This document shows, one piece after another, positions 8,960 to 50,209 of a DNA stretch of 64,000 bases (positions are counted from its first letter, which is position 1; each line of letters begins with the position of its first letter). This DNA is from Raillietiella orientalis (Eukaryota), in the NCBI GenBank assembly GCA_036172245.1, contig JAYWIR010000029.1, forward strand, positions 2,232,001 to 2,296,000, read 5' to 3'. The translations under genes were made by a program, and so were the position numbers. Below the pieces are notes generated by a model. It made no database searches, had not been told where the DNA came from, and saw only the letters and a program-made list of their open reading frames with translations.

Positions 8960-10443
8960 CAGTGCTGCCCTCCCTAAGGGACGCAAGGGAAAGCGCAATC
9001 CCAGCAAGGTAGGAAGTGGCTCGCTGCATAGCAGCAAACAAGAAACTGTTGGGGGCGGGGACCACTCGGGAAGTGACGGACGCTGCGAACCCGAGTGTCC
9101 CTCCCCACGGACTTGCACGCATAAGAGAGATGCTCGGCATCCTTGCGGAGGAGGTGAATTGTCCCCCTGCGTGCTGAACAGCGGCGCCCTCCCCTCCCTC
9201 AAGTGGCAGGAGTCGGCGGTGCTTCCACACCCGGGTGCGCCGGGGCGTTTATTTTTGTAAAAAAAAAAAAAAACAAACAAACATGTGCAGGGCCATTGCC
9301 CCTACAGCTTCCGATAAAAACTCTGAACTTGCCGAGTAGCCAGCGCGCAGGCTGGCGAGTTCGACTCGGCAGCGGAGGGGAAAGGGACAAATAAAAACAA
9401 AAAAAGAAAACACTATTGACAAAAGCAGGGAGGGGTCGTGGAAGGGATCACGTTCCGCTGGGGTCGTCCTCTACATCCTTTCCAGGATACCGGCAAGTTC
9501 AGTCCGCATACGTCCCAGATGGGACCATCCGGCTGCCGTCCTCAGGAAGCGCAGGGCGGATCGGATGGCGTCCCTATCTCTCTGTCGACCAGTGGCGTTG
9601 CTCCAGGCCGCCATAATCCCTCGTAGGAGGCAGCAGAGGGCTGCAAGGGCTACGGCAGGCGAAAGGGCGTCACGCACAAAGAGGCGCTTAAATACGTCTC
9701 TGGGGTTGTTCATGGATGCTCCAAGGGCCGTTGCGAAACGCAACCACAGGGGCCGGAGGGCAACACAGTCTACTGTGCTGCATGGGAATCCCGTGCGACG
9801 TGCGCCTTTTCCACTGGACACGGAGGAGCGTGGACGCTCAGAGGCAGACGCGGGAAGAAGGAGACCCTCCCACACCTGCTGTTGCACTGTGCTGCCCTCC
9901 GACCCCTCTGGTATCGCCTCGCGACGATCCTAGGGACCCCGGCAGGCGGCCCTAGGGACATTTGGAAATGCAACTTCGTGTGTGGTGCCGCACTGCCTCC
10001 AGCCGCGTCCTTCTCAGTCCTCTGCTGCGACCGCGGAATCGTGGCAGCTTGGAACGCTGGAAGAAGAGGCCAGAATGGCAGGGACGCCATCCACTGGGCC
10101 CAAATCTTCCTGAGGACCGCATCGGGGTGACCCCACCTGGGCGGGACACGGACAGAACTTGCCGGCATCCCGAGCAGCATGCAGAGGACACCTGGCAATG
10201 TACCGCGAGATCCCTTCCTAAATCCTTTCCCCCCCCTCCGCGTGTTTAAATTCTCCTCCCCCATTTTGCTTATCTTTTTTGTCTTCCCTTCCCCCTACGC
10301 TGCCGAAGCGGACCTCGCCGGTCTGCTCACCACTCTTCGGCAGGTTCGTTGCGCGTGGTAGAGCCAACGGTTCTACCAAGGAAATGCACTTTTATTACTT
10401 AACGTAATAAATGCCCCAGCATAACCGGGCGATAATCATCATC
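8960..10443 (+). mobile_element. 3' end of Tx1/L1-like non-LTR retrotransposon (family B), interrupted by a nested insertion
   Basis: Remnant ORF2 end LPSLKWQESAVL(M)LHG...RGKKETLPHLLLHCAALRPLWYRLATILG...IVAAWNAGRR (zf-RVT/CCHC pattern), then a 3' UTR ending in hairpins, AATAAA and ATAATCATCATC. Confidence 0.75.
9228..9772 (-). mobile_element. Diverged 5'-truncated family B' copy nested in reverse inside family B
   Basis: Minus-strand translation CVALRPLWLRFATALG...RGIMAAWSNATGR...RTELAGI is homologous to 9885-10340. Its tail 9228-9253 is the exact reverse complement of 37907-37932. Confidence 0.75.
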
Positions 10444-13938: not shown

Positions 13939-14650
13939 GGATGATTCTCATCCGGTTATGCCGAGATTTATCACGTTAAGTAATAAAAATGCATTTCCTT
14001 GGTAGAACCGTTGGCTCTACCACGCGCAACGAACCTGCCGAAGAGTGGTGAGCAGACGGGCGAGGTCCGCTTCGGCAGCGTAGGGGGAAGGGAAGACAAA
14101 AAAGATAAGCAAAATGGGGGAGGAGAATTTAAGCACGCGGAGGGGAGGGAGAGGATTTAGGAAGGGATCTCGCGGTACGTTGCCAGGTGTCCTCTGCATG
14201 CTTCTCGGGATGCCGGCAAGTTCTGTCCGTGTCCCGCCCAGGTGGGGCCATCTCGAGGCGGTTCTCGGAAAGATTCGTATCCAGTGGATGGCATCCCTAC
14301 CATTCCGTCCTCTTCCCGCGTTCCGGACTGCCACGATTCCACGGGAAAAGATTCGCTCCTCTATGTTCAGTGGCGAAGGCGCACGTTGCACAGGATTCCC
14401 CAACGCAGCACCAGCACCGCCGACTCCAGCCAATGAGGGCTGAGGGAAGGGAGAGCGCCGCTGTTCCAGCACTCTGGGGGACAATTCACCTCCTCCGTAA
14501 GGATGCCGAGCATCTCTCTTCAGCGTGCAAGTCCGTGGGGGTGGTACACTCGGGGTCGCAGCGTCCTTCACTTCCCGAGTTGTCCACGCCCCCAACAGTT
14601 TCTTGTTTGCCGCTATGCAGCGAGTCACTTCCCTCCTTGCCAGGATAACG
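13939..14650 (-). mobile_element. Family B copy with internal deletion
   Basis: Near-identical reverse complement of ~10040-10440 and clearly homologous to ~9000-9225; lacks the zinc-knuckle segment. Confidence 0.8.
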
Positions 14651-14659
14651 CCATCCTAG

Positions 14660-21349: not shown

Positions 21350-24260
21350 CTGCAGAAGTCTGAGAGAACTGAACGATTCATCCCCCATAAACTGCTAGAT
21401 AAGATAAGAAGGCACAGAAAGATTGCGAACGTGGAAGGCGTGATAATTTCGAGTGCAGCTCGGGATCGACAGAGCCATGCAGTTCGCATGGAACCCTTCT
21501 CCACGTCAGACCCTGAGGATCCATCTCCCTGGGTGTTTCTTACCATCACCAAGACCTGAGCCGGAGGCAGCTCCAGGCGAGCTCCCACTCGAACCATCCT
21601 GTGGCTGCTGCCCCAACGTTACTCTCCCTTCCGGCGAGCGGGAGTCGTCTTCCTCCGACAGAACTCTCCAAAGGGCAGGAACGTCTCGGTCCAGGAGGCG
21701 CGCACTAGACTCTTGAGCGCTCCCCAACTCCAGAGCCGATTGCTTTGGCAGGCGAGTGGGCTACGCACTCCTCAGCAGATTCTGACTTCCGTGGTCACCA
21801 TTTGGCTTTCCATGGCAATCGACACCTTTCGTGGGATCTGCCCAACGCTTGGTTTATCCTGCTAACCAAAACAGATCTCCCGGAGAGGAGATAATCGTTT
21901 CTACAGCGCGAGCTCCAGCGTCCAAGAAAGTCGGACTTCTCACCCATTTAAAGTTTGTGAATAGGTTGAGGTCCCAACTATTCTCCTTACCAGATGAAGC
22001 CCTGCTCTTTCCTGCCCCTTCAACAAGCATCAGCTGCCTGAGGGAACCAGCTACCAAATGTTTCCGTCCTTCTTTCGTCCATACACCCTGCTCTTACAAC
22101 CAGTCTCAGGTACCAGGATCTTCTGCACCTTAGTCAGAGCTGCCTCGGGTCTGTTGTATCCAGTCACTACCCACCATCTTCGAGTTGGGTTGGATGAAAC
22201 ACGCAGCTGGGGAGCACGCAGTCGCTGGTTTGGTTGCTCGAAGGGCATCGTAGAAACGAAGCTGGTACTGCCGCACGGAGTCTGCGATCTTCTAGCCGCA
22301 AATCCCCGACTTTTCGTTGGTCTGTACTTGCAGCGAAACTCGGGTCCTCCCAAACCGCAAGAGATTAACCGGATCATGAAAAAATTGGGTTCTTCTCTTG
22401 TCGTTACAGGAAGCAAGAAGAAGGTTCCACTGCCACCGGCGCTGAAAAGAGCCAACAAGGGTCGATCGGCGGGGCACCTGAAGAACACGCACATGGAGAT
22501 TGCAATGCAAAGAACAAACGTGGAATCACGTGACGCAGCAGGGGTTGCGGTCAGCAAGCGCTACCCGTAGAATCATAAAGAGGCAGTCAAAGGAAAGCTT
22601 TGAGTCACCAGGGGTGCTGTTTTGAGACTCCTGGCGCACAAGCCAGAGTTAAAATAAAATTGATCACCGAAGAATGCGAGATGTTGGGCTGGTTGCAAGA
22701 GTAGCCAAAATCACGTCCGAACTGTTAGCGGAATGCATGTGCGTGTGTTTTGTTTTCTGCTCTTCTTTAGGTTTCGGTCGCGTGGCGGACATTTTTCTGG
22801 ACCACATCTCAAGCATCTGCAAAACAAAAACAAAATCAAGCTGGACTCATCTGAGAAACAGAGTTCATACAGGAAGTTTTTGTTTCCGGGTTCTGATTCT
22901 CATGGAACAAAGAAAATCTTCAGTAAGGAAAGGTTAGTTTTTTTTTTTTTTCGACTCCGTCTTTTTATTCCGCTGGAATTTCCACCGTCTGCAGCATTTA
23001 AAACGTAGCCTTAGGGGATTTCGGTTTCAGGGGATTTGGTGTTTTGGCCGCTCTGCTGCGGCGCTTCTGGCTCGGACTCGTGTTTTCTGGTGAGGATCTG
23101 GTGAGAGTTGGAATGACGTACTGCTCGATCCCTGTGGAGCTGCCTTTCTCTTCCGCGGATGGATGCTGGAAGGCAAATTTGCTCCTATGGTCATCCGGAT
23201 GAGACACGAGAGGGACATGTGGCTGCAGTTTTGCAGCGCCACGAACGAGAGTACCCTCTTGGAGTCACGAAAACGGTCCTCGACGTAAGTCGAACTCTGC
23301 ATTTCAGCCTAATAAGGAGCTGGAGTGGCGCAAAGAAAATGGCGGTAGGTTGCAGAGGGTTCATGTCAAAGAGATCCTGAAAACAAGAAGCTGATGGGCC
23401 AAGCCATTTGTCTCTTTATGTTCCTAGAGGGAGTGCTTGCTGACCTTACGTTTTTTAATCACCGTGTGCATACTCTTTAGGTGCCCAGCAAAAGCAAGTC
23501 ACTTCCCCTGGGGGGATTTTTCGCATCCATAACAAGTCGACTTTGCTCATGGTGGAATAATTGAATAAATGGCCAGCTATGATGAATGCTTGACTCGTGT
23601 AGGCGATGACATAGGGGGATTTCCGTATACAGTGCTGTAGCATTCATGTACAACAAGCACCTTGGCAGCCGGTGGATACGAACACATCTGGAACCATCCT
23701 CATTCCAAATTTTTGGAGATCTTTGAAGAAGGCTAATTTTTAGAAGGGCCGATTCCAAAAAACGCGTAACGATCCGTCGGCCGTGGGTGTGTCTGCCAGG
23801 AACCCCATCGAGACAGATCTCGTGCGTATCCAAAGAACAAACAGCAGATATTGAGAATGGCGGAGGTCCTTCATGATGGGGACAAAATCCGGACTTTTGC
23901 GATCCGTTGTCGTGTCCTTCCCTGCTTCCGCTCGTGAGCATGTGGTCTCAGGTGCACCCACAGACTCCCTCCTGCACGGGCCCTTTTTTTTTTCCTTTCG
24001 AGGGGGTTTGCTGAGTACTGAAGGACCCTTCCTCGTTTCCAGGGACGCCCCAGTGCACTGGCAAGGCAGCGGCCTGCTGGCGGCGGGATGAAAGTGCATC
24101 GGCGTCCGCCAGGAAGCCAGGATCTAGAAGTTCCCACGGAGGACGCCGAGGAACTTCGCCTGCAGACTGTGCAGGCGAACATCCGGATGTTGGAACCGAC
24201 TTGGCGCTTGCACAAAGAGACGGTTCGCCAAGTACCACGAGAGCTGTTGCGCGCCCGGCG
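21350..24260 (-). mobile_element. Decayed R2/NeSL-like (RLE) non-LTR retrotransposon, RT through endonuclease
   Basis: Colinear degenerate motifs on - strand: LDTHEICLDGVP (~23820, LDxxKAFDSV), MNPL (~23360), TYVED (~23285, YADD), CGLGGPEF (~22350, thumb GGLG), AVETI (~21900, zinc knuckle), VGAR (~21580, RLE end). Many frameshifts. Confidence 0.65.
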
Positions 24261-24264
24261 GCTC

Positions 24265-24720
24265 AAGGGGCTCAACACGGTTCCACGTCACCCGAGGGTG
24301 AGTGTAGTAACTCTTCAAGTTATAGGGTGCAGCCCCGGAGGGACCACTTTATGAATCCAGGAAGGCTCCGGAGGAAGGAGTCCATTCCACTTACGCTTGG
24401 GAAAGAACCCCGAAGGGAACTCCCTGGTTGTGTCTCCGAAAAGAACCCGAAGGGAAAGTCCCTCTTCCTTATTCTCTCCAGAGGCACCCACCGGAGGGAG
24501 CCACTCCTCGTTTCTTCTCCGAAAAGGAACCGGAAAGGATCCGACCCTTCTTTCCTCTTCCTCTGAAGGGAACCCGGAGGGACGTTTCCCAGTTTCTCTG
24601 AAGGGCACTCCCCGAAGGGAACAGCATTCTTTCCGCACTCCAGAGAGGCGGCCTACGGGATTTCCTTCCGGTTGTCTCTGGACCATCGGAAGGACTAAAC
24701 CACAGAGGGAGCCGACTTTT
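24265..24720 (-). mobile_element. Family A copy (partial)
   Basis: ccacgtcacccgagggtg...ctcttcaagttatagg...tatgaatccagg followed by the ~36-nt repeat array, as in 6587-6910. Confidence 0.65.
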
Positions 24721-25231
24721 CGATTCCCCTTCAGTAGCTCCGCCCTTGCACTCGTTTAGCTCCCGTCGCCACGTAGAGGAGGAAGCGGGAATTTTCAAGC
24801 GCCCCGAATTCCCCGGAACTCGACGTCGTCTCTTTGGAAGGGCGGGAGCTTCCCGTCCTCCCTCCGCATGTGGGACCAATGAAAGCGTTGGCTGGCAACC
24901 TTCTTGATGCCTTTCGCCGTGTCGCGCGTCCTCGCGCGTGAGAGAGAACAACACGAACGTGCGAAAACCCACAGGTGCACGCACACTCCGCAACGCAAAG
25001 TTGGACCCCAGCAGAGGTGCAGAAAGCAGTGATCCGACTTCCCGCGCAACGAGCACGGCGAGCCATGTTTCCTAGGCAACGCAGCTGCCGATTCGGATTT
25101 CCCATCCGACGCGGACGTGCGCGCCGATCCACGCGTAGGTCGATGATGCGCCGTGTACACACGCAAGGGAAGGGAGGAAGCAACGCTTGTGCCGCCTCGC
25201 TACGTGCTGATGGGATATCATGGAGGACCCG

Positions 25232-25387
25232 AATCTGTACACACCGACGTACAGATTGCCTGCACCTGAACACCTGTATGAAGTGAGTGCGCGTAATCTG
25301 TAAACACTGCCGTGCTCGTGAAATCTGTAATCTCGTAAATGTGTAAACACTGCCGTAATCTGTAAACACTGCCGTAAACACTGCCGT
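25232..25387. repeat. Minisatellite of (AATCT)GTAAACACTGCC units
   Basis: GTAAACACTGCC occurs at 25300, 25343, 25362 and 25374, with degenerate units nearby. Confidence 0.85.
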
Positions 25388-25449
25388 GCGCACGAGCGGC
25401 ATTCACGCGTGTCGGAATCTGTGCGGAACTCGGGCATTGGCGCGGAATG

Positions 25450-25900
25450 TACGGTCAGGCTGCACACTCGCGGCCGGCCACGTATGCAAAAGCCTGATGA
25501 CCTGCTGATGGTCACCGGGATGCCGTTGGGATGATCATCGGGATGTCGGGAAGAAGGCGTTTCGAAAATCGAGGTCTGGAGGAACCTTTGCGAGAAGACA
25601 AGGAACATTTCCTACACCCATCGTCCTCCTTCCGCAGGCAACGAGCTGGACAATCGCTCCCGGGGTTCCCGGAAAAAAAATGACTCGCCTTTGCTGAGCT
25701 TTCGGTATGCAGAGTGACGATAAGACTTTCGTGTTGGGAAAAAAGGGGCAAGCAGGTTTGCCTGGAGACGCCCACAGGATCCGGCGTTCTCCTTCCGGGT
25801 GAGCGGCTCCGGGGGTTTCCTGGCTATCCGCCCCAAGGCGATTTCTCGTCCGCGGATCAGGCGGGGCCGCCTGCGGCACTCGCCTTTCCCCAGTCGGGCT
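25450..25900 (-). mobile_element. Decayed RLE-type LINE 3' fragment
   Basis: RCLRKEDDGCRKC (~25605-25645) resembles the start of the CCHC knuckle. Confidence 0.35.
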
Positions 25901-26031
25901 CTCGTCCCGTGGCGCCGGAAAGGCAGACCTGACGCGGCAAAAAATTAAGTCCGAAATTTCGAAGGGATGTATTTTGAGGGAGCGATTTTTAAGGTGGTCC
26001 GAGACTTCCGGGCGAGCAGCGTCGAACCAGA

Positions 26032-26448
26032 TCAGATCCTTTTCCCTCTCATGCCGAGGAATCCTGGAGCCTTCGCCTTCAGCAGGGATTCCGCGTCCCT
26101 GCTCCTCCGCACGCTAAACGGCCAAGAGCGTGCAAAGCTCCTCTCCCGCGGCGCGAACTTCCCCTGCGGCGTCTCGTCGTCCCGGCTGCCCGTCAGCGCC
26201 TCGCCGGCCGCCATCCCGTCCGGCTGTTGCAGCACCCGTTCCAGGTAGAGGGTCAGCATCCGAATGAGCTCCCGGGACGGGTCGTTCGCCGCGAGCCCGT
26301 CTCGGACGTGGCTCATCAGCTGCAGGTCGTCATAGAGGCGGGAAGAAGGATCGCGCGCGTCCACCTCCGCGGTCGAGCCGTCGCCCGAGTGGTAGAAGAG
26401 GACGCAGACGAAGACGGTCCTCCAGACCACGCGCACTAGGGTCCTCAT
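26032..26448 (-). CDS. Tk: Tachykinin-related neuropeptide precursor (138 aa)
   Basis: Signal-peptide-like N-terminus (MRTLVRVVWRTVFVCVLFY), an RRSR basic site, and C-terminal KAPGFLGMR-G-KR matching the protostome FxGxRamide consensus with amidation Gly and dibasic site. A tctttgcag acceptor lies one base before the ATG. Confidence 0.85.
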   Translation of the reverse strand: MRTLVRVVWRTVFVCVLFYHSGDGSTAEVDARDPSSRLYDDLQLMSHVRDGLAANDPSRELIRMLTLYLERVLQQPDGMAAGEALTGSRDDETPQGKFAPRERSFARSWPFSVRRSRDAESLLKAKAPGFLGMRGKRI

Positions 26449-28699
26449 CCTGCAAAGACACGCATCATGGCGTTACCCCTTTCGCGGCATGATCTCGCGA
26501 CCCCTGCCCGTGACCCTGGCTGGCCAGCGCGATGAGAGTGCGCTTTGACCGCCCCCTTCCTTGCAGGTCCTTCCTTTCCCTCCCTGGTGGTCGGACTAGC
26601 TTCGCCCCTCCGAGCACGTGGTGCGGTGCTCACCCTTGCCTTCCGCCGGAGGCTCCCTTCCTCAGAGCGCAAGCCGAAAGACTCCTGGAGGCGGACAGGA
26701 GGGCGACGGCGAGGCAGCGAGGAAGCGCTACCGATGGCGCAAGCAACAACCACTCTACTCGGCGGTAACCCCACAGGCGTTCCGCCGCGTCCCGTTCGTC
26801 CGATGCTCCGAAGAGATCGTCGTCGGAACGCTCCACCTCCGGGAGCTACTAAGGAGACCCGTAGAGGAGGAGCGAGGAAGGTCCTTTCTCGCGTCCCTTG
26901 GCAGCGACGCAAGGGAGCGTCGCCATGGAACCCTTCCCTTCCTTCTTCCGCCCCAAAGTCGCTTAACTCGGCTTGTTTTTTTTTTCTTCTTCTACTTATC
27001 CTTCCCGTACTGCAATCTCAGCGATCAGAGGCGTCGTGACCACCACCATCATCGTGATCGGAATGGATGGAGGATGTTTCAGACAACGGGGTATTCTTCG
27101 CCCAGGGCTTGGGCAGCGCGATGTGCCTCTTCCGATTGCCAGAGGCAACGGAGAACACGGCACATGTGGAGGGGGGGAGCGGGAACTTCCTGAAAGCATG
27201 AACGCGAAGATCAGCAGCCAGGGATGGTGGAAGTCCGTGAGGAAAACGGTGCTGAAGGTCACTTCATGCCTCCTCTGATCAGCCGCAGCGCTAGACCGCG
27301 TATGAGCGCACCCCCAGGACATAGCGCGCTGCGGATGTCCTGCCATCTTCCGCCGCGAGATCGAAGGGTGCTTCCCAACTGCCGGAGGTCTTGCGGAGAA
27401 GTTCCTCCCTTGTGGAGAGCACTCCAAGGAAGAGGGAAAAGGACATCTCCGGGATTCGAGCCCGGGAGGAATATGCCTTCTTCTTGGGAGCGTCCTAAGT
27501 AGTCCGGGAACTCCTAGGCGTCCTTCATCTCTTGAGGAGGGTTGTGCTCGTGAGGAGGGGGGGGGGGGCCTTAGAGAGGCGATCTGTCGAGGTGACTCGG
27601 AAAAGGAGGTCCCACGAGGAGACGGACGCTGCTGCAGCAGTGCACCCCAAGCTTTCTCTAATGGTAAGCCCTGGAGCTTTCCCTTTGCGCCCTGCAGGCA
27701 TCCCATTCCCGCCCAGTTGGATCCTAGAATCCATAGAGGGGGACGTCGGAGTCTCCTAATGCCACAAGGGAGGGAAGGGTCTGAACTTTCGAGAGGCCGT
27801 TTCTGCTCCAATATCCCTCCTCTGACGTCCAGCTGGTTACCCCCAGCGCCAGAGACTCTCTCCCCCGGCCGGGCTCTTCCTTGCTTCGTTTCCCGCAAGG
27901 GTGGAGACTCTGGAAACTGGGATCCTGGAATCTCAGAGAAGGAGAGAATAGGAGAGCGGAGGGGAGAAGGGGGACGCGGAAGTGCGTGGTTTCGTGAGCC
28001 TCCAGCGGCACATTTCCTCTATCCACAGGCCATCCCTCAAGAGGGAGAGGCTCTCTGGCTCCCTCACTAGATTCTTGAGCTCTTTCGAGACGTCTGGGAG
28101 GAACAGCTCCAGATAAGAAATGCTCGGAAAACCGGTCTCTGGGATGATACCTCTCCGGGGAAGGAGGACTCGTCTTCCGTAGGGAATTCCCACTTTGGTT
28201 CGGGAGTGTCCTCCAGCGTCTCTCCCGGCGAAGCCAGGAAAAGAGTAGGGATGCAGACGGCTGGAGTGCCACGCGACTGCTCCCTCAAGCAAAGAGGAAG
28301 ATGCCGATGCCTCCGGGAGTGCATCTTGGGTCTTCCCGATCCAAGATCTCGGAGGAGGCCCAAGTGGTTCCCAAGAGCACAAGAAAAGAGGGTGAGATTG
28401 CTTCCAGTGGCTCCCAGGCAGGGTCAAGATCCCCACGGCTCGTGGCATCCCCCTGGTCCAGCAAGCGCCGCAGCGCTTCAACTACGATGGCGACGGCGGT
28501 GTCGGCGGCCACTCGAGTTGCGAGATTGGAGGAGGAGGAGGCCATGGTGGCTCCACCCGAGGTCTGCTGTCAGCTGCTTCCAGCGGCCCCGAGAGCCACT
28601 TCTGGCTCTCGGAACCGCTTCCGGAGACAGTTCGGACCTTCTTCATCACCAGCTGGCTCCCTCGGAACACGCCTCTCTGTGAGGTGTGTCTCGGATGGG

Positions 28700-29640
28700 T
28701 CTGTCTTCGCTGTTTATTCCCTTCCAGAATTTTTTTCAGGTTTTCTTTTTTTTTTGGTACGCCAAGTACCTGAAGAGCCGTCTCGTGCCTCGTGGCGCAC
28801 GTGGCTCTTTAACACGTTTCCACGCCACCCCCAAAGGGTGCGTGCTATTCTTCAAGATAGGGAAGGCATCAGGAGGAAGGGGGTCCCGCCTTATTAATCA
28901 GAAAGGCTCGGAGTGAGCTCCTCTCGCGTTTGGCGAGGGGGGATCGCACCTCCCACCCTGGTTATCTCCGAAGGGGAACCCCGAAGGGAATCTCCTTCCT
29001 CATTCTCTCCGGAGGGAGCACCTCGGAAGGGTGGTGGTCCTCTCCATTTCAACTTCTCTGAAGGGAACTCGGAAAGGATCCGCTGGTAGGAATTTCTTCT
29101 CCGGAGGGAACCCGCAAGGGAACCACTTCTGTTCACTCCTCTGAAGAGAACCCCGAAGGGACGCTTCCGAAACTCAGAAGGGGTGCTGCAGCTTCCCGCA
29201 GGAGAATCGTTCTTGCTTGCTTCCTTGCACTCTGTGAAGAGGCGACGACTCGGAGGGTCCCCCCCGCAACAGGGGGTATCCGCTCCTTTGAACAACTGGA
29301 GAGGTGCCCGTGAGGGCTCCTGCTCCATCTTGAAACCGGAGGGGTCCCCCGGTGAGGGGGTTCCACTCTCCGTTGCACGACCGGAGGGGAAACTCCCCAC
29401 TTCTTTATTCATGGGAAGACCCGAAGGTCAATCCCCATTGTTCCAGCCTTCATCGGGGGCCTCCGGCTTAATCCACCGCCGGCGCCACGCCCGAATGATT
29501 AGGCCGACCAACGCCATTGCAGGAGAAACTCGGAACCCAAGAACGCAGTGGCGTCAGTTTCTGCCGGAACATTCGAACCCGCGACGCATGCCTCGGATGG
29601 GAGCCGCGACGACGCGCCCCTCCATCGGGGCACGGAGATC
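28700..29640 (-). mobile_element. Family A copy
   Basis: Same body and repeat array (ctcctctgaagagaaccccgaaggga shared with 6888-6913) and a degenerate B box ggttcgaat at ~29571-29579. Confidence 0.65.
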
Positions 29641-29849
29641 CCGAGGCGCTCGAGGCATCGCCATGCCAGCGAGATGCGCTGCTTGTGATCTTCTGCGCCT
29701 GCTGATCCCGAGCTTCCGGTCCCTAGTTCGACTGACCCCCGCAGTTGTCTCGCTGTGCCTCAGCCCGTTGCGAAACCACCCCGAGGAAATCGGGCACCAG
29801 GAAAGGGGGTAGTTCCTCTGCCACAGGAACACCTTTCCCACCTTCTGTT

Positions 29850-32450
29850 CAACATTCGAGCCATCATGAACAGCAGCATCCTCTGGTGGTCCAGGGGATT
29901 GCCTGGACGTCTACGGAACACTTAGATCTACCCGCGACTTCAAGCGAGACCACGAGGGAAGGTTCCGTGAGAGGCACGTGCCTATCCAGGATGTTCGCAT
30001 TCTGCGATGCTGTGGTGAACTCCGAACGGATCCCAACCGTGCTGCGTCGGAGTTCCCGACGAGTCTTCCCGTTCGGACGCCTTCAACGAAGGACGCGGAC
30101 CAAGCAAAGCCCGCAGAGCCCTCTGAAGGGCATGATGGGGGCGGAAACGTTCTCAGGACGCGACCGAAAGTCTCAGCATTCTCGGGAAGGAGCGCGCCAA
30201 AGGATCACCGCCTGAAAACTGGAGGGTGTGCAAACCCCAGAGTGCCCAGAAGAGACATTGGGTTTCGGGGAGTAGGGAGCCCAGGGAAAGACGTCTGAGG
30301 CACAAGAAACGAACGACCAAGGGCGGTCGCCAAAAGGTGCGCCATTGGGACACCCTTCAACGGAGGACTTGCCTCACGTCTGCTGCTTGATCGGCCGGGC
30401 GGAGACGGGTCGAGGGAAGTCCATCGAGAGGTCCAGCCAGTGCGCTCCTCGACTGCACAACCTACTCTCCTTCCCCCCTTCTTCCCTGGGATGCTCCCTA
30501 GCAGCCAACGTTTCTGATGGATGGCGGAAGACGTCTCGCGAGTAAACCAAGGATTTTCCTCCTGGCCGGAATGGCGGTTCCAACGCGGGGACTTGGCAGA
30601 GAGGCGCTTCCTATAGAGTCCCGCAAATGGGGAAGCGGCGACAACCAGCAGCGATTCAGGAGGCGAGCGAGGAGCGCGGAGGGATGGTCATCCTGGAGAG
30701 GCAGCAAAGAGAGAGATGGACCCTGACACGGAGGCAGTGGATCTCCCGCCGGGGGTTGGCATCCGTGCCAGCAGGAAGAAGTCGCAGCTTTCCAGGTGGG
30801 ATCGGGGCTCATCCGTCGTGGCTGAGCACGGAAGGAAAGGTGGGGGGAGGGACGCCTCTTTGGCGCTCGTTGAGGAGATGGCGGAGACGGCCGAGTCGGA
30901 TAACCTTCATCCCTCCGTTCCCTGCTGTTGTTCCGAAAACGGACCGCCGCTCCACCCTTACCCCCGTTCCCCAGCTTTTGGTCCTTCACATTCCGTCTGC
31001 TTCCTGCCCGCCCTACCCCTTGAAGAACTCTCGGGGAGGAGCGCGTCCGGCCGTGGAGCAGGAAGTTCGGGCGGCCGGGTGCGGATCGAGCCGGTCTCTC
31101 TCCCCCTTCCGGATGCCGCCTGCGGCATGCCTGCTCTGCTCGCGGTCCCTGCAGGAGCCTTCGAGATCCGTGAGCCTGGAAGTCGCTCCCGCCGGAGACC
31201 CCTGCGTCTAGGGAGGAGCGCACACGGCGGTCTGTCGAGCACGTGCGGGCGTTTCGACAGGTTCAACAAAGACTTCCCTAAGTGGCCTTCGTGACTCCAG
31301 TTGCCTCAGGAATTCCATGGCGAATGCTCTCTGCTCCTGGAGGCCACGCTCTTTGGGAGCCGGTGCTTGCAGGTGGAACATTGCAGATCCTCTTTTCGGC
31401 GGCAGTGCGCTCGATGCCTCCGCGGGGAGGACGTGGGGCGTCCCCGGGGCGCAGCACAGGCACGCGGAGTCTTCAGGTAGAGACGCGGAGGTTGGAATCC
31501 CTTCCTCACTCCGATTGGGGGCACGCCCCGATTCCCGGGGTCGCAGACCGATCCACTCTGCTCAGCGGTGCCCAGGGATGGGTATTGCGAATGACGAGGT
31601 CGCGGATGCAGGGGATGCCGCCTCCTGAGGCAGCCTCCGTTGCCCACGCAGCGACCCGACTCGCCTCTTCTCCGCTGAAGGGACTTTGGGACGTGAGAGG
31701 GTTCCCTTGGATCTGACCCCGGCCACCGTCTGGATCGAATACTCGCGCAAGTGAAATTCACCTGATCCCTGACGCGGCCGAAGGTGCTACCGAGAGGAAG
31801 ACTGCGTCAAAACCTCGCTATCTGCATGTCAACGAAGGGCATCCACTCCATCCATTCGTCCGAGCCATGCTCTCGAGAGATCCGGGGATCGGGATCCAAA
31901 GCGGGGAGGTGATCCTACGGGCTAGGACGAGGCACCTTTCGGTTGCCCCCAGCATCCAGTATCGCCTCGATGCTCATCGGGCTGTTAGGCTCGAACATGC
32001 TCCGGAAGAAGGAATCGCCCAGGACTCTACTGCCCGGGGAGAGCAGCACCGACCGATGCGGATGTGGTTGGAAGATTCTCGGGAGCCACTCCCTGACCCC
32101 ACAAGAGCGGAACGAGAAGGCACGTGAAGACGGGGAAGGTGGTAGACACCCCGGATCCTCCATCTTATGTGATACCTCTGCTTTCCTAGCAGGAAGAACC
32201 GGGTTTCCGCGGGAACCTACCGGAACGAGATGCTGCGCAGACGGGGCACAGGGCACTCCGCGCTGCGCGAAGAGGTTTCGGCTCTTACGCGTTCACGAGA
32301 CGCAGAGCTGCCGCGTCCACTACAGACCCCCCCCCGGGGGAATTAACAAGAGGTATCCCGCGCGTTTGCCTCCTGACCACGGGTGGTTCCGAGGAGACCG
32401 AGAGCATGCGACCTCGTGCGGCACCACTTCCACCCCAGGGCTGCAGCGCA
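29850..32450 (+). mobile_element. Decayed non-LTR retrotransposon (RT region)
   Basis: Frameshifted DFPK-AF-DS-V-PQEF-MANAL at ~31270-31330 and a GVxQxDPL-like sequence at ~31535-31560. GC-rich with no intact ORF. Confidence 0.55.
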
Positions 32451-35400
32451 GCCCTGGGGTGGGGAACTCACCCACCCCCGCATCCCCAGGAACGTCTCTC
32501 GTGCACTTGCGATTCGAAGCACAGAAAACAGGCGGTGATGCGAGCGGCAGTCACCGTCGACTGCAATGAGCGTCAGCACGGCAAACATTAGGGGAAGGAG
32601 GGGGGTCGGGAGAGGGGGGACGAAACCGTGCCGCGGGCCATCGAGCGAGACGAGGACGAAACGCGTGGCATTTCGCGCTCCGGATTCCTGACGCTCCGGA
32701 CGAAACCTGTGCGGACAGCAAGAAACTGGACACCCGTCGCTCTCATCTCCACCTCGGTACTACTTACCTCCTATCCTCACAGCTGATGGTAGGTAGCAGG
32801 CCCGAGTAGAGTGCACAGACGCTCCGGAAAGCTTCTAAGGCAGCATCCACATTTTCGACTCCTTTTCCCTTTTATCCGAATCTTGGTAACCAATCAACGA
32901 TTCAAGATCCTGCGCCACAGTGAGGCGGCAAACTTGTGTACAAACCGAATACACCATCTTGATGGAAAAAGCCAGGGACAACGTGCAATAAATTTACAGG
33001 AATATCCCAAGGATGGAGGCGGACAGATCGTGAGAGGAAAAAGAAAAGAAGGAGAGGGACAGACAGGCAAACAGGCAGAGGGGAATCTAGTTTTCTAGGA
33101 ATGGTCTGCATTTCCCGTCTGTAAGCGCTGCAACGAATTGAGCTGCTAAGCGGCCGCTGGGCAGCAACTGTGGTGTCCGCAAATGCCGTGCTGTGAGAAC
33201 CGCGAAGGACGCGCGGCCACCACCACGCTCTTCCCACGGGAGCACCCGCCGCGTATCCAGTCGACGGCGAGTCTCGAAAGCGAGCGCCAGCCCTCCGAGG
33301 TAGCTCGTGCAGGGCGTGGCCCCCCCGGCTCCACTCGCGCCTTCTCGACGGACAAGCAAAGAGCGCCGGGTTTGCGCTGCTTGTCTTCCCGTTCACCAAA
33401 GAGGGCGTTGCTCCTCTATTCGGAGACGTCGGATGAGTTTGTCTGCCCTGCCTGCTCCCGACCGAGCGAACAAGAGACACGAAAAAGAGGAAGAAAAAAA
33501 ACTGCATAAGCTGCGTACAGACAAGGTTTCCACCTGTTCCTGACCGAAGTAGCTGCGCAAGAACGCCGTGTTTCCTTGACCGTTGCAGGACATCAAAGTG
33601 CTCTCTCCCAGAGAATCACCCACTGAGAGGAAAGAAACCGACATCGTTCGAATCTGGTCACCGGAATCTTTGAATCGAAAAGATTCTCGAAAAGATTACT
33701 GTTGACCTCCGACCAGAAAGAGTGAAGCGGAATTTTGTTTCTTTGGGAGAAGGGGAAAGCCTCGTTCCGGCGTTGGACTGACGCTCTTGGACCACGGCGT
33801 CCGCCGAATCCTTTCCAAGCCTGCTGAGGAAACGCAGCAAGCTTGGGTGCCTTGAGACTGATTCGGCTCCACTGCCGGAGTCGTGGTTCCTTCTTGCAGG
33901 CTTGAAAAAGCGGAAAGGAAAGTCCTTTCTTCTCTCAAAACACGGACCAAAAAAAGGAAGGCATCCGTCTGCGCCGTAGAATGTTCCAGCACGAGCATGT
34001 GCTCCTGCGAGATCTTCGTCCAAGTGAGAAAACTCGGTATTACTCGCTAAGCATGCAGACTCCTCAAGAGAGAACACATTACACCCAGTGTACGTATTTT
34101 TAGCTCAAAGAGAAGTGCGAGCGCCTCAGAGATTTAGAGAGAGAGTCCGGCACGGCTTACGGAATCTTTTTTTTTTTTTTTTTTTTCCAGTAATAAATTT
34201 TCATAATCCGGGATCTAAAAAGGGGAAAAAAAAACTTTTAAGCACCTGAATTGCAGCTGCACCGTGCGAAAGCTTCCCCGTTTTTCTCCTGTTCGCCTAC
34301 TTAGGAAAGATGGCGGCTCAAATCTGCGAGCGTTGCAAGGTGCACGTAGGGATTTGTCTGCAAGGAAGAATTTAGCACCTCGTGCTTCTCCCGAAACGAA
34401 CGACGACGGGCGGCTGGAAGGGAATCTCATAGTCTTCTTATGCATGCACGTATTTCAAAGTTTCAAGAAGCCTCCTTGATCTCCTTCTTCGATTGGAAAC
34501 ATCTTCTGTGCATGCACGACTACACTCTCCGAAGGGAAGTGAATGCCCGCACCAGTTCGTAAGGTATGAATTCTCACCAAAGGGATGCCGTCTGATGCGT
34601 GCAACTCTTGAAGCAAAAGTCTAGATCTTGCGTCGGACGCGACCTCGCAAAAGGTCAACTTTTCCTCAACTGAGAAGTCCTTTTCTTTCCTCTTTCAGGG
34701 ACTTTGGATAAGTATGTGAAACGGACTAGGGATTACCGAACTCTGGGTTCCGCTTGCTCCGAATGGCTCCTGCTGCCCTCTCGAGCAGCGCTGCCTCCCT
34801 GGAAGTTCCCCTTTCAAAGTTCTGTCATGGCGCGGTTCGAGGCGAAAGAATCGGCTGCGAAATGCTGCCCAATACGTTAAGGCAATCCGTCAGCGTTTCG
34901 CAGCAAATGATGACGGGAGATGGACCAAAACAGCTTTTTGTGAGTGTCTTTTGTATGTGACCTTGGAAGAAGACTCTCTGCTCAGTAACACAGAAAACGT
35001 ACTCACGGAACCATCAGCGGAATAGACAAGACGTTCAGTCAACCTTACGAGCTGGTCACCTTCGAGCTATGGAAAGCGTTTACGCTCTTCCCGAATGTAT
35101 CGTGCGGGTACACTCACATCCCATGCAACAGTAAACACTACCGCCTCTGCTTCTGAAGGTTTTCGTATTCTTATAATGACAGTAAGTTTGATCAATTGAG
35201 TGATGAATTCGTGATTACTGTTTGAAAGTCGGGCCATTCATCTCTCGATGGGAGAAGCAGAAAGAAACGATTTCTCGAGGATGGCATCTGCTTCATGGAG
35301 ATATGTTCAATGAATGCACACACATGTACATGCACCAACGTGTGTGTATTCGTTGGAACGAGTGTCTTTCTAGGACCAGAAAACGAAAGAGCAATTTTGC

Positions 35401-40084: not shown

Positions 40085-40779
40085 TGTTGCTAAGCAGCGA
40101 GTTTGGAGCAGTGGCACCCTCACCCTCAAGTGGCAGGAGTCGGCGGTGCTGATGCTGCATGGGGGAATCCTGTGCAAAGTGCTCCTTCGCCACTGGACAC
40201 GGAGGAGCGTGGACGCTCAGAGTGAAGCAGGTGCGGGAAGAAGGAGACCCTCCCACACCTGCTGTTGCACTGTGCTGCCCTCCGACCCCTCTGGGATCGC
40301 CTCGCGACGATCCTAGGGACCCCGGCGGGTGGCTCTAAAGACATTTGGAAACGCCTCTTCGTGTGTGGTGCCGCACTGCCTCCAGCCGCGTCCCTCGCAG
40401 TCCTCTGCTGCGACCACGGAATCCTGGCAGCCTGGAACGCGGGAAGAAGAGGCCGGAATGGCAGGGTTGCCATCCACCGGGCCCGAATCTTCCTGAGGAC
40501 CGCATCGGGGTGACCCTACCCTGGAGAGACGCGAACGGAACTTGCCGGCCTCCTGAACAAGATGCAGAGGACGCCTTCCCCCTCCCCTGTTTTGCTTGTT
40601 TATGTTTTTGGGTGCTTTTGTCTTCCCTTCCCCCACGCTGCCGAAGCGGACCTCGACGGTCTGCTCACTGCTCCTCGGCATGTTCGTTGCGCGTGGTAGA
40701 ACCAAAGGTTCCACCACATAAATGCACTTTTATTACGTTATGTAATAAATGCCCCGGAAAAATCGGGTGATAATCATCC
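40085..40779 (+). mobile_element. 5'-truncated family B (Tx1/L1-like) copy
   Basis: TLKWQESAVLMLHGGILCKVLLRHW / SRCGKKETLPHLLLHCAALRPLWDRLATILG and the same structured tail as 10355-10443. Confidence 0.8.
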
Positions 40780-48448: not shown

Positions 48449-50209
48449 CTACGTTATCAAATTCTGTAACTCGGGTTCTAATAAGGCAATGGTCAACATG
48501 ATTCCAATCCCCAGGAGCATTCCGACTATTTGTAGACCAAGTCTTTGAAAAAAAGAACTGCAAAACTTCCGGTCCCTCAACTCTGGAATCTACAACACAA
48601 CTGTTTGAGATCCAGAACGAAATTGGAATTTGCTTTCAGACTTACCATGTCTACCAAAGAGATGTAAAGGAATGTACCTGCCACCAACGCCATGAGCCAG
48701 GGAGAAAAATGCTCGATCCGACCAAGCAACATGCCTAAGGCCATGCCTATAAAACTCAACACGGAAACAAGCATGTTGTAGATGATGGCATGACGAACGG
48801 ACATACCCGTCTTTAGCAACATCGCAAAATCACCTGGATATTCATAAATGAGGAAATCTATAAAAACGTACGAACCGATCTCATGAGGCAACTCGTGACA
48901 AAAGACTGCTATGGACGTGGAAAATCCGCCAGGAATGCTAACTACAAAAGCAGCTCCAATGGCGAGACCGTCACACAAATTGTGCAAGCCATCTCCTGCA
49001 ATCACCATCCAGGCTACTGCAGACACTGTCACAGGAGCGTGCACATGCCCATGATAATGCGTATGCCCTTGATGCGCTAAACATGAGCTCTCCAACTCCG
49101 GTTTCAGGAGTTTATCTTGAGGAAACTCTCTTTCTTCTTCCGCTTCGTTTATATCACCTTGTGCCTTTCGTCTCCCTATGTCTTCTATCGAATCTGTCGA
49201 ACGATACTTCGGTTTTTCAACCCCTGCGCATTCTGAAGACTCCGATACAGATCTCTGAAACTGCTGCGGAGAGTTCTGCTCCAGTTGCTCGCAAGCGCTG
49301 TGCATAATCTCGCTGTTTTGGCATTGTTTGGGAAGCATCCTGTTGTCTGCCCAACGGAGGAATTCTATCACCTTTCGCTAGCAGAGATAATAACTAACTG
49401 GCTGCTATACACTCTGCATCCTGGGATCTGTACAGCACTGCTCCGTTGTGAGAACTTCTGTCCTGACAGCTATCACTTAGAGCCATTATTTTCATCTTGT
49501 ATGTTTTCTGGAAGCAGAACTCCATAAATCAAACACATATGTACGCATTAAGGTACAAAATCGTACCTTCTGTTGTCGTTTCCAGCCCAAGCAGCTGATG
49601 ATTTGCTCTGTGACGAAAAACGCAATGATTCCTAAACTTGCGACTAGACCTTTGAGAATATGGGACTGCTCCTCTTCCCTAGATGATGAGTGTTCCTCCA
49701 GGAAATGTGAATGCTCTCTTACCATGGCCTAAAACAACACTTGCATACCTTACTGGAAGATTGCAACATTGCAGATTTTACATGAGGGATAAGATGCAAC
49801 AAAGCATCACCCAGCAGACTTCCCACAGCCAATGCAATGAGGAAATGCAGCAAATGCTTGTAAATTTTCGTTTTCATCAGAGGAATGGCAGCTGCTCCTA
49901 TAAGGCCACACACTGAGACCAAGACGATGCTCAAGGAAGCATAGATCCATGCTGAAAAGCTCCTGCGTTACCAAACTTATTTGACTCGAGTTCTACGTAC
50001 TGTGGGTTAAAGACGTCACAGGTTTGAAGGAATCGTCGTCCCCATCATCATGTTGGTGAGCATGCAGGCAATGCTGATCCATTTCATACAGAAGCAGGGG
50101 GCAAAGAGCTGCAAACATGGTACTATTTACCCCGGTGGTCTGATTGTATCCTAATTTCTTCCACAGTTTCTGAAAATTTTCCACGTTATTGCTGTGTACT
50201 ACATTAAGG
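48449..50209 (-). CDS. SLC39A10: LIV-1 subfamily ZIP zinc importer (SLC39A6/A10, foi-like), 3' exons with all TM helices
   Basis: GT-AG exons join in frame: 50209-50001 (FAALCPLLLYEMDQHC, LIV-1 CPALL-like motif), 49951-49782 (WIYASLSIVLVSVCGLIG...LIALAVGSLLGDALLHLIPH), 49728-49567, 49507-~49400, ~49350-48876 (His-rich loop, VAWMVIAGDGLHNLCDGLAIGAAF, CHELPHEIG = HEXPHEXGD), 48833-48646 (GTFLYISLVDM), 48589-48449 (LQIVGMLLGIGIMLTIALLE, TAG). The junction near 49400 is uncertain, and A6 versus A10 orthology is not resolved. Confidence 0.95.

Follow-up and report, generated by a model that had tools for sequence, protein, structure and literature searches.

The window analysed here, a stretch of 64,000 nucleotides, carries on its minus strand an open reading frame (ORF) of 138 codons that very probably codes for a protein and that seems, on balance, to be a functional single-exon, single-copy precursor of a tachykinin-related peptide (TRP). 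The frame runs from an ATG at 26448-26446 to a TGA stop at 26034-26032; an in-frame TAA at 26475-26473 makes the ATG at 26448 the first of the open frame. The protein starts with MRTLVRVVWRTVFVCVLFYHSGDGSTAEV and terminates in ...RRSRDAESLLKAKAPGFLGMRGKRI, immediately followed by the stop codon (also written ...VRRSRDAESLLKAKAPGFLGMRGKRI). The elements of the candidate gene, all on the minus strand, are:

26032-26448, minus: candidate precursor coding sequence (P0001), 138 aa, stop codon included
26449-26460, minus: acceptor-like site tgtctttgcag/g, with its AG at 26451-26450, 1 base 5' of the ATG
26377-26448, minus: signal-peptide-like N-terminus, residues 1-24 (MRTLVR, hydrophobic core TVFVCVLFY, HSGDG)
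26098-26109, minus: RRSR, residues 114-117, a furin/prohormone-convertase-type RxxR sequence
26047-26097, minus: predicted mature peptide DAESLLKAKAPGFLGMR, 17 aa, amidated [M+H]+ 1802.995
26047-26070, minus: APGFLGMR, the last 8 residues of the predicted peptide, with the FxGxR core, amidated [M+H]+ 847.461
26038-26046, minus: Gly-Lys-Arg, amidation donor and dibasic site, followed by Ile and the stop codon

Coding signal of the open reading frame

The GC contents of the three codon positions, counted from ATG to stop, were 0.64, 0.49 and 0.86, a composition that is the signature of translated sequence. The excess at the third position (GC3) was 0.271, compared with a mean of −0.002 (SD 0.053, maximum 0.131) in the 181 other ORFs of at least 100 aa, which corresponds to z = 5.12. 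Among the stop-to-stop ORFs of at least 40 aa in the window the candidate ranked first by periodicity (3.26, against 2.31 for the next), and analysis in 30-nt bins showed that the periodicity spans ~26071-26460 and fades at both ends of the ORF. The 60 neighbouring ORFs in the surrounding GC-rich block have flat codon-position GC, with GC3 values of 0.43-0.68, and the amino-acid composition of the candidate is more protein-like than that of these neighbours (rank 3 of 61). The length of the ORF is unremarkable; of the 182 stop-to-stop ORFs of at least 100 aa in the window, 61 lie in 23.5-34.5 kb. A point against the candidate is that its GC3 (0.86) is much higher than that of an exon of a zinc transporter gene in the same window (ZIP, see below), which is 0.48 overall and 0.60-0.68 in the ZIP core; the two appear to stand above the local GC by a similar margin. 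In view of the codon-position values of 0.64/0.49/0.86 an origin from a high-GC bacterium was considered, and it was rejected on the flat composition of the flanking ORFs and the lack of a prokaryotic homologue.

The frequency at which the C-terminal motif would arise by chance was estimated from 4000 shuffled windows (500-nt blocks) and from the observed trinucleotide frequencies. The generic pattern FxGxRG[KR][KR] has a single occurrence in the real sequence; it was present in 107 of the 4000 shuffles (~3%) and its trinucleotide-based expectation is 0.045 per window. The exact strings are far rarer; the expectation per window is 9e-7 for GFLGMRGKR and 3e-9 for APGFLGMRGKR.

The ORF is apparently a single coding exon. 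The acceptor-like site at 26449 probably joins a 5' UTR to it, by putative cis- or trans-splicing, and three upstream ATGs (at −42, −20 and −17) would be lost if this site is used. The start context is favourable, with an A at −3. There is no GT donor before the stop of the ORF, so the FLGMR motif cannot be removed by splicing. No direct, inverted or tandem repeat and no repeat family overlaps the ORF, and tblastn found no paralogue of it in the window. Small overlapping tandem repeats with periods of 12-19 nt were seen at 25315-25387, ~650 nt downstream of the ORF stop on the coding strand.

Architecture of the predicted precursor

An earlier sequence-only reading of this DNA had described a signal-like N-terminus, a single APGFLGMR-G-KR at the extreme C-terminus, an RRSR site upstream of it and a splice acceptor just before the ATG, and each of these was found again at the positions listed above. 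Signal-like starts were scored with a crude rule of our own, which asks for a basic residue within the first 8 positions, an uncharged 9-mer with a mean Kyte-Doolittle value of at least 2.2, and small residues at −1 and −3. Seven of the 204 ATG-ORFs of at least 60 aa pass this rule, the candidate among them; its hydrophobic 9-mer ranks 14th of the 204, and the hydrophobic stretch is broken by an Arg. By the −3/−1 rule, the signal would be cleaved after G24 or A27. At the other end, APGFLGMR-G-KR-I-stop (26038-70) combines the FX1GX2R sequence, the Gly and the basic site by which tachykinin (TK) and TRP precursors are recognized. An ending of G[KR][KR] plus 0-3 residues is found in 5 of the 204 ATG-ORFs, and only the candidate also passes the signal rule.

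The ORF contains one copy of FxGxRG, without the several paracopies that are usual in TK precursors, and no second F...R-Gly-basic site is present in it. The 85-residue pro-region has no internal dibasic site. In decapod TRP precursors KR stands directly before the peptide, whereas the candidate has KAK there; neither KR nor RR directly precedes AP, and RRSR lies 9 residues upstream of AP. The KAK does not fit the usual monobasic rules, so the canonical short peptide APGFLGMRamide may not be released.

The route from precursor to peptide that these elements suggest is as follows. The N-terminal signal peptide would be removed at about G24 or A27, and in the secretory pathway a prohormone convertase would cut after RRSR and after the C-terminal Lys-Arg; the established specificity of convertases makes RRSR a plausible cleavage site, at which the N-terminus of the extended peptide would be freed. 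The basic residues would then be trimmed by a carboxypeptidase, and the exposed Gly converted to a C-terminal amide by peptidylglycine alpha-amidating monooxygenase. The product would be DAESLLKAKAPGFLGMRamide, or APGFLGMRamide if a further, unusual cut were made after KAK. For a form extended by SR the calculated amidated [M+H]+ is 2046.128. The peptide would be expected to act on a tachykinin-type G-protein-coupled receptor of the host.

Comparison with known tachykinins

PMC6880623 gives FX1GX2Ramide as the consensus of protostome tachykinins; the sequence-only reading had based its assignment on the FxGxRamide type. Known peptides with the same ending as the candidate are listed there from several arthropods. 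The Drosophila peptide DTK-5 is APNGFLGMRa; the decapod CabTRP-I, which the sequence-only reading had named as the crustacean form, is APSGFLGMRa and occurs in 7 copies in Procambarus; and CamTRP-2 also ends in -FLGMRa. TPNSRAFLGMRa and KMHGEKFLGMRa stand in the two rows after the Daphnia pulex head row, and further -FLGMRa rows are TKRP-3 (APSGFLGMRa) and TK-1 (IPQGFLGMRa). The candidate has in common with pancrustacean TRP precursors the unchanged core -GFLGMR with Gly and Lys-Arg after it, the AP with which the short peptide begins, and a layout of putative signal and pro-region. It differs in being one residue short (APGFLGMR, as against APSGFLGMR in decapods and APNGFLGMR in the fly) and in showing no detectable similarity to these precursors outside the motif. 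The string APGFLGMR was absent from all 25 papers that came up in a full-text literature search.

The number of copies is another difference; the candidate has one, and PMC6880623 gives 7 for Procambarus, 6 for Drosophila and 3 for Daphnia. The sequence-only reading had noted that arthropod precursors usually carry several. The number of peptides per TK precursor given there ranges from 1 (tardigrades) to 15, with most protostome precursors multi-copy, and a single copy is therefore not disqualifying. The TK precursors of the tardigrades Hypsibius and Ramazzottius (Koziol 2018, cited in PMC6880623) likewise hold a single tachykinin-type peptide; by description they also hold one predicted natalisin-like peptide, which the candidate does not.

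Natalisins (FxxxRamide), the panarthropod sister family of the tachykinins, were considered as well, because FLGMR formally fits FxxxR and would share the amidated Arg. The candidate, however, has Gly at the third position of the motif (FLGMR), as in the FX1GX2R consensus given in PMC6880623, and it holds a single peptide whereas natalisin precursors are multi-copy; on both counts it does not fit a natalisin precursor.

Homology searches

No relative of the 138-aa protein was found at E ≤1 in a word-indexed search of ~15 billion proteins. An exhaustive HMMER search gave two weak matches, one of them repetitive and neither reaching the C-terminus, and both were read as spurious. The C-terminal 50 residues (89-138) gave no match at E ≤10, the protein had no match in metagenome contigs, and no Pfam family covers it. 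Homology to known TK precursors was accordingly not seen beyond the peptide, with no match that covers the C-terminus or the whole protein. As TK precursors are known to be poorly conserved, this is a weak test. The nearest neighbours in a protein language model were almost all neuropeptide precursors (NPFF, DH31-type, NMU/NMS, 26RFa, CCK, nematode FARP and UTS2B), with scores of 0.89-0.91; the recognition value was 1970, below the mark of 2300, so these neighbours lend weak support.

The sequence-only reading had looked to conservation in related species, which did not come to its aid in these searches, either for the whole protein or for its C-terminal 50 residues. Its central proposal, a single-copy TRP precursor, holds as far as the coding signal, the neuropeptide architecture, the known -FLGMRamide ending and the tardigrade precedent of a single copy are concerned, and lacks the relatives.

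Genomic surroundings

The Pfam scan covered 446 ORFs, namely 146 of at least 108 aa from the whole window, 150 of 55-107 aa from 18-35 kb, and, from the remainder of the window as far as 51.9 kb, 150 out of 200 with a length of 68-107 aa. Among the scanned ORFs the only Pfam-recognizable gene in the window is a ZIP10/foi-type zinc transporter. The features found around the candidate are:

about 48452-50130, minus: ZIP10/foi-type zinc transporter gene (tblastn)
48580-49377, minus: ZIP exon (Pfam, E 1e-34)
49722-49967, minus: ZIP exon (Pfam, E 6e-12)
21414-22229, minus: degenerate eukaryotic large-subunit (LSU) rRNA fragment, 75.6 bits, model positions 665-1888 in 816 nt
9784-10440, 13966-14446 (inverted) and 40117-40778: three copies of a dispersed repeat family, 84-93% alike

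The sequence-only reading had placed the candidate in a "retroelement graveyard". This description was not borne out, as no reverse transcriptase (RT), integrase, gag, protease or transposase domain was detected in the 446 ORFs, in which Pfam returned nothing beyond the ZIP transporter and some chance matches below threshold. An origin of the candidate ORF from a retroelement is likewise unsupported, with no RT, integrase, gag or protease domain among these ORFs and no overlap with a repeat family. No protein domain is recognizable in the dispersed repeat family, and neither this family nor the LSU fragment overlaps the candidate ORF. A further inverted pair of repeats is found at 8988-9176 and 14467-14656.

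The candidate lies in a GC-rich block (24000-34000) with 57-63% GC and a CpG observed/expected ratio of mostly 0.7-1.2. The block has long open frames in all six frames, with flat codon-position GC and no Pfam match. An rDNA origin of the block was rejected, because a single degenerate LSU fragment is all that was found and no SSU or 5.8S match was obtained at E ≤0.1 in 16-38 kb; the LSU fragment is an orphan rDNA relic.

The ZIP gene has very short introns, one of ~57 nt (read directly) and another seemingly of ~30 nt. Its stop is followed, at a distance of ~150 nt, by an AATAAA. The best named relatives of the ZIP exon are ZIP10/foi proteins with 53-61% identity from Hemiptera, a copepod, a barnacle, spiders, an ostracod and molluscs. 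When 20 sequences were placed in a tree, the ZIP of the window had a long branch (1.89) and fell into a polytomy. These relatives and the long branch point to a divergent bilaterian host, most simply a poorly sampled arthropod-like protostome, and the affinities of the ZIP exon also speak for a TRP precursor. The earlier hint at a nematode gained nothing from the window, in which the neighbouring ZIP is nearest to arthropod and mollusc proteins.

Alternative explanations

The alternative to a functional TRP precursor that we take most seriously, and still regard as unlikely, is a TRP-derived relic that no longer works: a young pseudogene, a stranded duplicate or a retrocopy, which would have kept its frame and periodicity and be unexpressed or unprocessed. 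Genes are scarce around the candidate, no other one being recognizable by Pfam in 1-48 kb, and canonical poly(A) signals are missing, as neither AATAAA nor ATTAAA is present on the coding strand from the ORF stop to 23459 (~2.6 kb) and only an AATACA is seen, at +59. The KAK before AP, where known precursors have KR, and the single peptide copy would fit a relic too, as would an isolated second FLGMRG 6.4 kb upstream in a non-periodic frame, which could be the decayed remnant of another copy. A decaying gene would, however, have to have kept all 138 codons open and very strongly periodic, together with an intact signal-like start, RRSR and GKR. There is also no remnant of a poly(A) tail 3' of the ORF stop, and thus no sign of retroposition.

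It is rather improbable that the ORF encodes a small secreted protein of another function, the C-terminal FLGMRGKR of which is not processed to a tachykinin-type peptide. The motif is placed exactly at the C-terminus and is followed by an amidation and cleavage signal, and the 11-residue match to APSGFLGMRGKR-type sequences, one residue short, has the very low expectation of 3e-9 per window given above. Such a protein would explain why, in spite of the strong coding signal, only the last 12 residues resemble known TRP precursors; neuropeptide precursors are, however, generally unalignable outside their peptides. The absence of dibasic sites from the 85-residue pro-region would also suit it. 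A further point in its favour is that the codon bias of the last 12 codons departs from that of the rest. In the 12 peptide-end codons, APGFLGMRGKRI (26035-26070, minus), 7 have G or C at the third position, as against 112 of the 126 preceding codons (binomial p = 0.007 for a split made post hoc); A/T-ending codons thus number 5 of 12 in this stretch and 14 of 126 before it.

We would give little credence to a more unusual reading, in which the candidate is not the ordinary multi-copy tachykinin gene of its host but a lineage-specific single-exon, single-copy gene for an N-terminally extended -GFLGMRamide peptide. It would then be either the TK signal of a deeply divergent, unsampled animal lineage outside the pancrustacean range known for this ending or a secreted mimic that acts at the tachykinin receptor of another animal, comparable to venom and salivary peptides. 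Exogenous tachykinins, which mimic those of prey in venom or saliva (for instance the FQGMRamide type of Ampulex venom, PMC6880623), provide cases of TK-type peptides outside the normal context of a neuropeptide gene, but nothing at the candidate locus indicates that it is expressed in a gland or that its host is a predator or parasite.

There is, finally, only a slight chance that the ORF is an open frame of GC-rich non-coding DNA with a tachykinin-like end, for although ORFs of at least 100 aa are abundant (61 in 23.5-34.5 kb), the generic motif turned up in 107 of the 4000 shuffles and will turn up when very many windows are scanned, as they were, and homologues were not found, the GC3 periodicity (z = 5.12) is confined to the ORF and free of tandem repeats, the exact GFLGMRGKR is expected only ~1e-6 times per window, and the candidate alone among the 204 ATG-ORFs combines a signal-like start with a G[KR][KR] end.

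Significance of the candidate if functional

Tachykinin-related peptides are textbook neuropeptides of protostomes, and the biological surprise is therefore small, unless the host is outside the arthropods; the candidate would join a well-known family, and genes of this kind are already known. If expressed, it would be an unannotated neuropeptide gene, would bring to a mostly multi-copy family a precursor that has one peptide copy with an N-terminal extension, and would offer a ready ligand for de-orphanizing the tachykinin receptor of the host. With no Pfam family and no relative among ~15 billion proteins, the candidate is invisible to homology-based annotation, and it would probably be lost as well if repeats or low-complexity sequence were masked in this GC-rich block of few genes. 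The periodicity of GC over codon positions can set a small real gene apart from dozens of chance frames in GC-rich DNA.

A second FLGMRG sequence

The hexapeptide FLGMRG is encoded once more in the window, upstream of the candidate:

32475-32492, minus: second FLGMRG (…SARETFLGMRGW), 6.4 kb upstream of the candidate, followed by gtgggtgagt

A Met with a hydrophobic start (MFAVLTLIAV, ATG at 32588-32586) lies 33 codons upstream of it. The synonymous codons differ from those of the first site, and the flanks show no DNA or protein similarity to it. It was considered as an upstream exon, since a GG/GT donor here and the AG/G acceptor at 26449 would be joined in frame. This was rejected: the hydrophobic segment would be buried inside the protein, the join puts Met-Arg and not a dibasic site after the Gly, and the upstream frame is non-periodic. 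It is doubtful that the second FLGMRG belongs to the candidate gene, and it may be a product of chance or a decayed relic. The GC contents of the three codon positions in its ORF are flat (0.67/0.59/0.64, no periodicity), and FLGMRG occurred in 11 of the 4000 shuffles.
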